32,839 nucleotides of DNA, from positions 1-32,839 of the forward strand of contig JBFMGU010000118.1 in the NCBI GenBank assembly GCA_040752415.1, read 5' to 3'. A model generated the notes under the pieces. That model was not told where the DNA came from. It searched no databases and saw only the letters and a program-made list of their open reading frames with translations. The DNA comes from Myxococcota bacterium. GTDB taxonomy: Bacteria > Myxococcota > JACRCW01. The translations under genes and the position numbers were made by a program. This document shows, piece after piece, positions 10,748 through 32,839 of the stretch; the first letter of the stretch is position 1; each line of letters starts with the position of its first letter.

Positions 10748-11677
10748 TCAATCCCACTGTCGCAGCAGCTTCTCCAGCAGCGGCTCCACCGTGTCCCGCT
10801 CGCGGAGCTGGTCCAGCCAGCGTCGGGGAATCGCCTCCACGCCGTCGCGCACGCCGGCCAGCCCGCCCGCCACCGCCGCGGTGGTGTCGGTGTCCCGTCC
10901 CAGCGCCACGGCGGCGCGCACCACGCGATCATAGGACGGCTCCCGCAAGGCAAACCGCGCGCTGTGCAGGCAGTCCACCACGTAACCGGTGCCCCGCGGG
11001 ACGTGTTCCTCGTCGGGACGCACGTGCCGCTCCAGCTCTTCCGCGTGGGGACCCGCGCCACCATAGATGGCCCGCAACATCGCCACGGCGGCGCGGTAGG
11101 GGTCGGCGACGTCGTGGAGCAGGCGCCGCGCCCACAGGCAGTACAACGCGCAGCAGACCTGGGAGCGCGGATGGCCGTGCGTGGGGAGAGATTGGTGATG
11201 CGCGTCGTGCACCAGCTCCTCGTCGGTGCCGCGGTGCCACAGCGCCAGGGGAAGCACACGCATGAGCGAGCCGTTGCCGTTGTGCATCTCCTCGCGCGGC
11301 CCGGTGTGCTCCGCCGGCTTCCCCTCGCGCAGCGCGTGGATGGCCTGCGCGGTCTGGATGCCCACGTCGAAGATCCGGTTGTCGACGGCGAGGTAGCCGT
11401 GGTCGTGCCAGTTCACCAGGCGGCGGCCCAGGTCGTCGATATCGAGACGGCCGCAGTGGTTGAGGCTGGCCAGGAGGCAGAGCGCGTGCGCGCCGTCGTC
11501 GGACCAGGTGCCCGGTGGCACCCCATGGCTCGCGCGGAAGCCGGGCGGAGGCGTCATCTCGATGAGCGGCGGCGCGGGAATCTCTTCGGCCGAGTGGAAC
11601 TCGTAGGGCACGCCCAGCGCGTCACCCACGAGGAGCCCCCAGATACCGCCCGCCACGCGCTCCTTGAGACCCGGCAT
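10748..11677 (-). CDS. ADP-ribosylglycohydrolase family protein
   Basis: ATG 11677. Motifs GLLVGDALGVPYEF, GTWSDD, GNGSLMR, THGHP and GRDTDTTAAVAGGLAG. Confidence 0.92.
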   Translation of the reverse strand: MPGLKERVAGGIWGLLVGDALGVPYEFHSAEEIPAPPLIEMTPPPGFRASHGVPPGTWSDDGAHALCLLASLNHCGRLDIDDLGRRLVNWHDHGYLAVDNRIFDVGIQTAQAIHALREGKPAEHTGPREEMHNGNGSLMRVLPLALWHRGTDEELVHDAHHQSLPTHGHPRSQVCCALYCLWARRLLHDVADPYRAAVAMLRAIYGGAGPHAEELERHVRPDEEHVPRGTGYVVDCLHSARFALREPSYDRVVRAAVALGRDTDTTAAVAGGLAGVRDGVEAIPRRWLDQLRERDTVEPLLEKLLRQWD

Positions 11678-11736
11678 GGTCCGGATCCTCGTCGACGCTG
11701 GAGCCTCTTGCCAACGCCCCACGCCCGCTGGTCTCG

Positions 11737-11906
11737 AGCCAAAGCGGTATTTCAGACCGCACTCCCAGGGTGCCGGCGCGTTCTCCGTCCGGTCCATCAG
11801 CCGGCACGCGGCGCTTCCCGATGAAACACCCGCGTGCGGGCCCTGGTGGCAAACTGTTGAGCGGTGCCCGCACCCTGGGAGTGCGGCCTGCAATGCCGCT
11901 TTGGCT
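11737..11906. repeat. REP-like inverted doublet (REPIN/BIME-like), 37-bp arms with internal hairpins
   Basis: 11737-11773 and 11870-11906 are inverted repeats with 3 mismatches. Each arm is GGAGT plus a GCGGY...RCCGC hairpin plus TTTGGCT. Internal 8-bp stems at 11770-11777/11800-11807 and 11834-11841/11866-11873. Confidence 0.85.
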
Positions 11907-12045
11907 TCAAAGTCCGAGGGACGCCTGTGCCAGACGGAGGCCAAGCGGCGTGACAACCTTCAACGGGAACCGCAGTCATTCGCCCGGCCGCCAGACCCGC
12001 CACGCAGCTTTTGCCAACACCTGTGGGAGGGGGTATTCCCGCCCC

Positions 12046-13023
12046 ATGCAGCGTTTTGGGCACTACGTCCTCAAGCAGCGCCTGGGTCGGGGCGGCATGT
12101 GCGAGGTGTTCCGGGCCCGACGGGAGGACGCCCACGCCGGCACGCCCGACGTGGCGCTCAAGTTCCTGATGCCCGAGCTGCAGGGCGACCCGCGCGCCGT
12201 CGAGCTGTTCCGCAAGGAGGTGGAGATCAGCGTCCGGCTGGGCCACCCCAACGTGGTGCAGGTTTATGAGCACGGCCTCGTCGACGGCGTGGTGGCCTTC
12301 CTGGCCATGGAGCTGCTGGACGGACCCGACCTGGCCGAGCTGCAGCAGGCGGCCTTCCGCCAGGGCCTGGCCCTGGGCCTTCCGCTCAGCCTGCACATCT
12401 GCATCCAGGCGCTGCGCGGCTTGGACCACGCCCACACCCTGACCGGGCCCGGCGGCGTCCCCCTGGGCCTGGTCCACCGCGACATCAGCCCCGACAACCT
12501 GTTCTGCACCCTCGCCGGCGCGGTGAAGGTGGCCGACTTCGGCATTGCCAAGCTCAGCGCGCTGGAGGGCTTCACCGACCCGCGCTTTGGCCTCAAGGGC
12601 AAGCTGGCCTTCATGGCGCCGGAGCGGGCGCGCGGGGAGCCGGTGGACGCCCGCTCCGACCAGTTCAGCATGGGCCTCATCCTCTACGAGCTGTGCACCG
12701 GCGTGCGGCCCTACCGCTCGCAGCCGTCCGAGCCGATGGAGGCGCTGATGCGTCGGGTGGCCAGCGGCGACGTCCCGCGCGCGCGCAAGATCCACCAGGA
12801 GATCCCCAAGGGCCTGGACGCGGCCATCATGCGCGCGCTGGATCCCCGGCCCCGCGGTCGCTTCCGCAGCTGCGCGGAGTTCGCCGACGAGCTCGAGGCC
12901 ATCATGCGTCGCGAGCACCTGCCCGCCGCCAGCAATGAGCTCAAGGTGTTGATCGAGGAGCTCTACCCGGCGGGCTACCAGCGGGTGATGCCCAACGTGG
13001 CCGGCCCGGTGCCGCTGCCCTGA
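12046..13023 (+). CDS. Hanks-type Ser/Thr protein kinase, cytoplasmic, kinase domain only
   Basis: ATG 12046. LGRGGMCEVF, VALK, HRDISPDN, DFGIAK, FMAPE, DQFSMG; no TM segment. Confidence 0.92.
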   Translation: MQRFGHYVLKQRLGRGGMCEVFRARREDAHAGTPDVALKFLMPELQGDPRAVELFRKEVEISVRLGHPNVVQVYEHGLVDGVVAFLAMELLDGPDLAELQQAAFRQGLALGLPLSLHICIQALRGLDHAHTLTGPGGVPLGLVHRDISPDNLFCTLAGAVKVADFGIAKLSALEGFTDPRFGLKGKLAFMAPERARGEPVDARSDQFSMGLILYELCTGVRPYRSQPSEPMEALMRRVASGDVPRARKIHQEIPKGLDAAIMRALDPRPRGRFRSCAEFADELEAIMRREHLPAASNELKVLIEELYPAGYQRVMPNVAGPVPLP

Positions 13024-23795: not shown

Positions 23796-24028
23796 GAATC
23801 GGCCTCCGCGTTTGGGCCATCGGCACGCACCGCCCGGTCCTGAAGCGCGGACCCGCCCCCGGTCATCCGCGGGACCCCCCACCCATCGGACAAGGGGATG
23901 ATGGGGGAAAAACCGCTGCATTTTCGCGCCACTCCAGCCCACGTCGCAGGTTGTCACCCCAGGTGCGCTCCGTCATCCTGCCGACCGCCGGGGCGCCCCC
24001 CCAACGCCCCTGGATCCGGACGAGAAAC

Positions 24029-29414: not shown

Positions 29415-29502
29415 GACGGGGATTCCTTAGCGCGCGCCTCCGCCGGCGTCAGGGGCTGCGCCCCAACCAGCCGCTCCGCGGGCGTGCCGACCTCGTCAGC
29501 GA

Positions 29503-29691
29503 GCCGCGACCTGGAGTGCGGCGGGCCCTCGCCGCCCTGGTCAGCGCCGCGTGCGTTCTCGACGTGCGGAACGTGCTCGACCTGGTGGCGACGGGGCGTC
29601 GACGCCGCCGCGACCCGCGACCGCTGACGAGGGTGCCACACGCTCGGCGCTGACCAGGGCGGCGAGGGCCCGCCGCACTCCAGGTCGCGGC
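29503..29691. repeat. Perfect 47-bp inverted repeat containing a REP-like GGAG-tagged palindrome
   Basis: 29503-29549 is the exact reverse complement of 29645-29691, with a 95-bp spacer. Each arm contains TGGAGT-GCGGCG-GGCCCT-CGCCGC-CCTGG. Confidence 0.9.
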
Positions 29692-29745
29692 CCCGTCACG
29701 ACGTGTGAGCGCCCACTGTGCCGCTTGTCTCGACGAGAAACGCGC

Positions 29746-32753: not shown

Positions 32754-32839
32754 CGAGCCAAAGCGGTATTTCAGACCGCACTCCCACAGTGCCGGCCGCG
32801 CCATCCCCGAGGCGGAGAGGCCGGCACGCAGAGTTTCCC
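32754..32839. repeat. Second copy of the 11.7-kb REP-like element (truncated by the window end)
   Basis: 32754-32786 is identical (33 bp) to 11735-11767. It is followed by the same GTGCCGGC...GCCGGCAC stem with a different loop, then GCAGAGTTTCCC (GCGGCGCTTCCC in the first copy). Confidence 0.9.

Follow-up and report, generated by a model that had tools for sequence, protein, structure and literature searches.

The locus and its anatomy

The window, which is the whole stretch of 32,839 nucleotides analysed here, comes from contig JBFMGU010000118.1 of a Myxococcota bacterium (assembly GCA_040752415.1), the genome of which comprises 11.0 Mb in 520 contigs with 69% GC. Within the window a symmetric element (11737..11906) lies between a gene of the ADP-ribosylglycohydrolase family (10748..11677, minus strand; PF03747, E 6.6e-69) and a Ser/Thr protein kinase gene (12046..13023, plus strand; PF00069, E 1.1e-29). 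Both genes are outside the element and point away from it. The tRNA/tmRNA search of the window gave no match. A weak inverted match (70%) was also observed between positions 11933-11976, upstream of the kinase gene, and positions 23931-23974; these two intergenic-looking stretches have the word GTGACAAC in common and possibly represent a shared regulatory site.

The element is organized as a tag-inside (TT) doublet of REP units, very probably a REPIN, with two accessory hairpins in its spacer. Its 37-nt arms (11737-11773 and 11870-11906) show three differences, at arm positions 12, 16, and 20, and an arm read outward consists of the GGAG foot, a T, a 5-bp GC stem with a 7-nt loop, and TTT. The left REP unit (11741..11765, minus strand) has the type A consensus of this pattern and matches the REP flanking a RAYT gene on contig C476, while the right REP unit (11878..11902, plus strand) is a variant with a compensatory C-G pair in the stem and one loop change. 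By terminator scoring a terminator-like hairpin, which is followed by T's, was located within the right unit (11883-11899, plus strand). The REP-to-REP spacer of 112 nt contains hairpin A (11770..11807; 8-bp stem of strands 11770-11777 and 11800-11807, 22-nt loop), a 26-nt linker (11808..11833), and hairpin B (11834..11873; 8-bp stem of strands 11834-11841 and 11866-11873, 24-nt loop), each hairpin standing 4 nt from the foot of the adjacent REP. Elements of the family possess about 20 nt of extra inverted flank; in this copy the left (11718..11736) and right (11907..11925) partners are decayed. No strand is assigned to the hairpins, the linker, the flanks, or the element as a whole.

A previous sequence-only reading of this DNA described the arms, both hairpins, and their loop lengths, all of which are directly present in the sequence, and it considered the two loops unrelated, which agrees with the identity between loop A and reverse-complemented loop B being at the shuffled level (0.38 and 0.41, respectively). 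Some of its other descriptions were correct in part. The arms with three differences exist, but not all of their length goes into the closing stem, which is 33 bp in the branched fold because the final 4 nt of either arm also serve as an outer strand of hairpin A or B. The compensatory T-A to C-G pair is real, but it sits in the small within-arm hairpin and not in the arm-arm stem, and the central palindrome, corresponding to the linker, is a weak one in this copy that other copies, with linkers of 0-28 nt, do not keep. What the same reading overlooked is that the arms represent REPs belonging to a RAYT system, and that the window contains one more copy of the family (32754..32839, plus strand), where an inverted REP, hairpin A, and the start of the linker are ended by the contig edge.

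Folding of the element is strong both as RNA and as single-stranded DNA (z-scores -9.3 and -8.5, respectively; 0/200 shuffles equally stable); the lowest-energy fold of this copy is an unbranched rod, with -58.9 kcal/mol for the core as DNA versus -52.4 kcal/mol for the branched fold, and -105.6 versus -95.4 kcal/mol as RNA.

The repeat family in the host genome

Iterated nhmmer search (E <= 1e-3) identified 154 loci of the family in the host genome, including 58 across the whole model and 34 at most 30 nt from a contig end; the copies are spread over 114 contigs. The REP census resulted in 94 REPs of type A (GGAG foot), 109 of type B (GGAC foot), and 197 of family F1. From the 203 A/B REPs, 104 are used in 52 tag-inside doublets, which have the feet inward and spacers of 69-125 nt. 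F1 is the third GGAG family, and its 197 REPs include 57 doublets with outward feet, one of which is found in the window (29466-29728) with a spacer free of accessory hairpins. In addition, the 21-mer census of the genome indicated palindromic families with about 70 copies, GTAG-footed ones among them, as well as about 150 copies of a repeat some 36 nt long, which is CRISPR-like in appearance.

The location of the doublets was analysed against the 8295 genes predicted by our own gene caller, by which 85% of the sequence is coding. All 52 doublets lie outside predicted genes, compared with 10.8% of random windows; 29 are placed between convergent genes, 13 between tandem genes, and 1 between divergent genes, and 9 are at contig ends, while the background of gaps of at least 150 nt includes 385 convergent, 1367 tandem, and 1017 divergent ones. 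This location bias is significant (P about 1e-15 and 7e-8, the latter for so few divergent settings). At least one gene ends upstream of 42 of the 43 doublets with both neighbours called, so that these doublets are downstream of a gene, and the sole divergent doublet among the 43 is the element at 11737..11906; its position between divergent genes was thus seen correctly in the sequence-only reading but is not the typical setting.

In other characteristics this copy also departs from the family. The arms are identical within 35 of the 52 doublets and differ at three sites here, outer-flank complementarity has a family mean of 12.8/20 and is 8/20 here, and a spacer relative with more than 90% identity is available for 20 of the 52 spacers, while the nearest relative of this spacer has 74% identity. 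The copy appears to be an aged, degenerate insertion in an unusual divergent gap.

The ends of the elements are blurred: direct repeats of 4-8 nt at the doublet edges are slightly above the cross-copy control (7/49 versus 4.2 +/- 1.6 at 6 nt), and a consistent target-site duplication was not seen at the doublets (49 copies at 6 nt). For a DDE-type MITE as a candidate, no clear target duplication was seen, and the arms match a Y1 RAYT locus. At C232:11590-11975 and C256:17-206 tandem runs of hairpins A and B were observed with the REP bodies deleted between units, and these runs are probably the family in decayed or arrayed form. The DNA search of 40 relatives gave no match to the element; however, only one of these 40 is from the same family, and therefore absence from the lineage is not implied.

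Conservation of the REP and accessory hairpins

The REPs are multicopy and extragenic, and both the REP hairpins and the accessory hairpins are kept by both-sided changes. In an alignment of 27 copies the REP stems are paired in 270/270 cells with 17 both-sided changes, one of them being the T-A to C-G change mentioned above. In the same alignment 96.6% of the cells in hairpins A and B are paired, and both-sided change affects 5 of the pairs (0/500 shuffles), the set having been hand-picked from full-length copies for diversity and including three with both-sided changes already seen, while the rod pairing has 77.7% paired cells, which is the shuffle level. RNAalifold applied to the 27 copies gave the closing stem with hairpins A and B and an unpaired linker. 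Among 131 unselected hairpins, 12 distinct one-sided and 5 distinct both-sided stem changes were counted; T-G wobbles make up several of the former.

The four stems could be parsed in 49 of the 52 doublets, 3 being dropped because of missing anchors. The A+B register accounts for 742 of 784 Watson-Crick pairs and the rod register for 622, with A+B better in 48 doublets and equal in 1, although the anchors come from the A+B consensus and favour it. Loop A is 18-26 nt and loop B 19-27 nt long (one of 6 nt), the linker ranges over 0-28 nt, and identity between copies is 90-95% in the stems and 48-69% in the loops. The C/G difference that sets hairpin A apart from hairpin B, and which spoils the rod, is fixed. 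The internal stems are thus kept in other copies with both-sided changes, and the earlier proposal that selection acts on fold and loop length finds support in stems that covary and loops held at 18-27 nt while their sequence drifts. These data argue that hairpins A and B are real, since the both-sided changes support the A+B fold and not the rival rod.

Several other structural candidates were rejected. The rod is the lowest-energy fold of the 11737..11906 copy, but as a conserved fold it has shuffle-level support in the family; a central third hairpin disagrees with the variable linker length and with the unpaired linker of the family consensus; and the loops do not look like captured genomic DNA, since a 14-mer recurs elsewhere for 52 of 89 distinct loops versus 49.9 in shuffles. 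Against the branched fold stand the equilibrium models, in which hairpins A and B dominate in only 27/49 doublets as RNA and in 20/49 as DNA, the rod dominates in 13/49 including the 11737..11906 copy, and the arm-arm stem has a probability of about 0.99, by which the REP hairpins would be buried.

The long-loop hairpin belongs to the single REP unit. Of 178 A/B REPs, 127 have it shortly 5' of the foot, and REPs that stand alone are among them; for F1 the corresponding count is 8 of 193, and among random 60-mers the rate is 1.5%. In the same place 29 of the 178 A/B REPs, including those at the RAYT gene, carry a short hairpin with the motif GCGNNAGC; the REPs beside the C476 RAYT have this mini-hairpin form and not the long-loop form. 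The cloverleaf therefore consists of two units of accessory hairpin plus REP placed back to back. Among 235 REPs at RAYT loci of other organisms, 70 have GCGN(N)AGC in the 18 nt that precede the foot, at 29 of the best 80 of 577 loci (random windows, 1.9%), and 58 of these 70 motifs stop exactly 5 nt before the foot. Elsewhere the long-loop form was detected at a single REP in each of two sets, one of 235 REPs from RAYT loci and one of 86 from doublet loci, the two sets of loci overlapping and the latter coming from 50 genomes searched for tag-inside doublets, 22 of them with a match; it therefore looks lineage-specific and was not found to be general.

RAYT genes and their association with the REPs

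Profile search with NCBIfam NF047646 revealed two RAYT-like genes in the host genome, located on contigs C476 and C512. The C476 RAYT scores 81.0 bits (cut-off 80), keeps the residues H63, H65, and Y124 that are invariant in its clade, so that the catalytic HYH motif and tyrosine are intact, and is surrounded by three type A REPs, one downstream and two upstream. The only solved relative found for it is E. coli TnpA-REP 4ER8 (E 1.8e-10). Its reading frame (L022 1060-1932, minus strand) has 290 codons and crosses the downstream REP, while the homology covers about 180 residues. The second RAYT (C512:9261-9836) is below the cut-off with 71 bits, is 52% identical to the first, and is flanked by longer F1-like REP units; it is likely the cognate of the F1 REPs. 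No RAYT flanked by type B REPs was found in the host genome. The PF01797 profile also detected two short Y1 transposases, C12:3-437 (55.2 bits) and C24:5888-6289 (51.7 bits; IS200 cut-off 55), which were rejected as the cognate enzyme, their flanks carrying other palindromic repeats of their own and not the element family.

In the GTDB locus search a single-protein query gave no match, whereas an alignment query gave 577 confirmed stretches, the best 80 of which were kept. In 74 of these best 80 of 577 homologous loci a GGA[G/C]TGC-hairpin is present at most 400 nt from the RAYT, and the density of such hairpins is 227 in 63 kb of near flank versus 9 in the 103 kb farther out. In a phylum sample of 401 genomes, only 3 exceed three such REPs (212, 29, and 12 REPs), and the same three are those carrying this RAYT among the 301 of the 401 genomes searched by protein. 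The RAYT clade includes at least 2427 protein clusters at E <= 1e-20, with hosts among Verrucomicrobia, Acidobacteria, Planctomycetes, Armatimonadota, and others; the plasmid collection contained no RAYT match at E 1e-15. Judged from these gene neighbourhoods, the GGAG/GGAC type of REP is tied to this RAYT clade across phyla.

Nature of the element and competing explanations

The arms are REP units, the same unit flanks the C476 RAYT, and GGAG/GGAC hairpins accompany homologous loci; the element is therefore assigned to the REPINs. Two inverted REPs less than about 130 bp apart (112 nt here), a short hairpin preceded at its 5' side by a conserved foot of four nucleotides (GGAG or GGAC), high copy number with an extragenic location, and a RAYT gene flanked by the same REP at C476, that is, a REPtron, are all present. 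The canonical REP subtype with the GT[A/G]G foot was rejected, the feet being GGAG and GGAC. Nevertheless, non-canonical feet including GGAGTG occur among REPtron REPs (PMC6006769, Table S1), and therefore only the canonical subtype and not the class is excluded. The element is an inverted doublet of GGAG-footed REPs with long-loop hairpins and, with high confidence, a non-autonomous REPIN that would be spread by the C476 RAYT; it likely represents passenger DNA, and no dedicated control element for its two neighbours.

An alternative that leaves the element a REPIN is that the inner stems are kept by self-templated repair and not by function, with hairpins A and B as a by-product; it is possible though doubtful, and the same holds for its conceivable routes, namely strand slippage or template switching in a quasi-palindrome, or RAYT-linked copying. 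It would account for arms that are identical within 35 of the 52 doublets yet differ between copies, for outer flanks that are more complementary within a copy (12.8/20) than across copies (9.6), and for the tolerance of one-sided stem changes; within-copy arm identity together with flank complementarity does mean that symmetry is restored by copying somewhere. Against it stand a loop length held at 18-27 nt while the linker ranges over 0-28 nt, the fixed rod-spoiling C/G difference between A and B, and the GCGN(N)AGC hairpin placed at the same foot distance in 29 of the best 80 of 577 RAYT loci. Insertion of A, linker, and B as a separate mini-element into the centre of a plain REP doublet is highly improbable, since a REP adjoins 161 of 170 stem-pattern matches (one pattern counted on both strands), most of the remaining 9 being coding sequence or elements in decay, no tag-inside spacer is shorter than 69 nt, none of the 16 rows from a relaxed search for spacers of at most 60 nt was an empty doublet by eye, and single REPs carry one hairpin each.

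The family could also be maintained mainly as RNA, as a 3' structure working in both directions to stabilise transcripts or end them, in which case the branched fold would count in the mRNA and the link to RAYT would be historical. This is rather unlikely, despite the location of 42 of 43 doublets downstream of at least one gene, the TTT after each REP hairpin with its terminator-like score, the T-G wobbles among the one-sided changes, and the role of E. coli REPs as 3'UTR terminators or stabilisers in the portion consulted of bioRxiv 10.64898/2026.03.23.713779. The 11737..11906 copy is upstream of both its neighbours, the family is confined to the host genome among the genomes searched, and the loops GCCA and GCA fit DNA mini-hairpins, as far as PMC13037366 was available, better than RNA GNRA loops. 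An RNA role at 3' ends is, moreover, compatible with the REPIN assignment and not exclusive of it. An attC-like integron site or a structured small RNA had also been suggested, with a possible effect on both divergent genes, and the strong single-strand fold speaks for it. A dedicated element of any of these kinds, whether attC site, small RNA, or promoter, is hardly probable at all. The ends of attC sites are an inverse core RYYYAAC and a core GTTRRRY; such a pair is present in 0 of 52 doublets, and no inverse core is found near the 11737..11906 copy. An integron-integrase-like gene does exist in the genome (C385:943-1941; 380.7 bits versus a cut-off of 435, one internal TGA), but no copy of the family is on its contig, which is only 4.2 kb long, and the copies form no tandem cassette array, being scattered over 114 contigs mostly between convergent genes. 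A weak cis-regulatory match, RF02401, overlaps hairpin B with 21.9 bits versus a gathering score of 42; Rfam gave 0 matches at the gathering score, and no known RNA family is assigned; nor is there a sigma-70-type promoter match at the element. What endures of the suggestion is the single-stranded DNA substrate, which is the best analogy for the element.

Proposed mechanism

For a REPIN of this structure the following course can be proposed. When a strand is exposed, either as the lagging strand or during transcription, the local hairpins would fold first in the order inverted REP, A, linker, B, and REP, and either strand of the element would offer one correctly oriented REP. The RAYT, as an HUH/Y1 transposase, would bind this REP by its foot and stem and nick nearby, and the resulting 3'-OH or covalent 5'-tyrosine would permit strand transfer or copying to a new site, so that the C476 RAYT may copy the element via a single-stranded intermediate. 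By analogy with the guide rule of PMC8266576, cut sites of CT would be expected for the GGAG foot and of GT for GGAC. The accessory hairpin at its fixed distance from the foot may be part of the substrate, and may also keep the spacer from closing up as a single long rod. The copies would persist chiefly downstream of genes, with a possible role there in stabilising the 3' ends of mRNA or in termination. We infer both the cleavage of the element by RAYT and its mobility, as neither a transposition event nor an empty site or excision read came to light and none of the 40 relatives searched carries the element.

Relation to known systems

For the biochemistry of TnpA-REP we rely on the sections consulted of PMC8266576 (Corneloup et al.). 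There the enzyme binds REP in single-stranded form but does not bind the inverse, depends on the foot, and makes its cut on the 5' or 3' side of the foot, after which strand transfer follows. REPINs with variable, length-constrained spacers are likewise known from the parts consulted of PMC3116915 and bioRxiv 2021.07.10.451892. As in the REPINs or BIMEs with RAYT covered there (Bertels & Rainey 2011, PMC3116915; PMC8266576), two inverted REPs about 100 nt apart occur here in many extragenic copies, the spacer is variable with constrained length and compensatory changes, and a single-copy RAYT is flanked by the same REP (PMC3116915). The differences from what these excerpts contain are the foot, which is GGAG/GGAC here and GT[A/G]G there, GTAG and GTGG being the feet tested in vitro; the spacer, which forms two separate long-loop hairpins here and extends one hairpin in PMC3116915; and the host, which is outside the gammaproteobacteria.

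REP dimers with two stem-loops in the spacer are already published. Di Nocera et al. (2013, PMC3733652), in the text consulted, described tag-inside (TT) dimers, dimers with small stem-loops at the spacer ends, A. tumefaciens CGTC-3 dimers in which 20-23 bp separate two different stem-loops, and REP-plus-stem-loop units that flank Pseudomonas RAYT genes; they also found few copies between divergent genes. The TT orientation, the two spacer stem-loops, and the rare occupation of divergent gaps are shared with the present family; in contrast, the families of that text are GTAG- or CGTC-tagged, the CGTC repeats having no transposase link, the term GGAG is absent from its main text, and conserved loop lengths in the spacer hairpins do not figure in the text consulted. 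Quentin et al. (2018, PMC6006769, Table S1 row 21) list a REP of the same type as the arms, with GGAGTG as its foot and a stem rich in GC, for the subclass 2.2 REPtron ABY36092.1 of Chloroflexus aurantiacus, the likeness being one of the REPs; this single supplementary-table entry gives neither a doublet architecture nor an accessory hairpin. The motifs GCGNAGC and GCGNNAGC are known extra-stable DNA mini-hairpins (PMC13037366, as far as consulted), and the short accessory form at the C476 RAYT and in 29 of the best 80 of 577 RAYT loci contains this motif, whereas the 11737..11906 element has the long-loop form; the scope of that paper is phage origins, promoters, and biotechnology, and REPs are unmentioned in the text consulted. 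The literature covered, with figures and bioRxiv supplements that may bear on the point lying outside its scope, contained no paper devoted to GGAG-footed REPs, no account of the GGAG/GGAC REP-RAYT clade as such, and no REP accessory hairpin or mini-hairpin at a fixed foot distance.

Significance

The locus at 11737..11906 is itself of little import, being one aged copy of a genomic repeat. The family, on the other hand, is a compact test set within one genome, with an intact RAYT, feet of both GGAG and GGAC, two forms of accessory hairpin, and both doublet orientations, and it points to a RAYT clade whose REP type was found in print only as one supplementary-table entry.

It is also conceivable, though unlikely, that this RAYT clade acts on a two-part single-stranded DNA substrate, in which the GGAG/GGAC REP hairpin is combined with a second hairpin 4-6 nt upstream. 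In that case the GCGN(N)AGC mini-hairpin of many lineages would have been rebuilt here with an 8-10-bp stem and an 18-27-nt loop, and the second hairpin would set the cut site or give an SSB-resistant priming signal; if the latter, REPINs would have their own copying start. The presence of GGAG and GGAC feet in one genome would then constitute a natural test of guide-directed cut-site choice.
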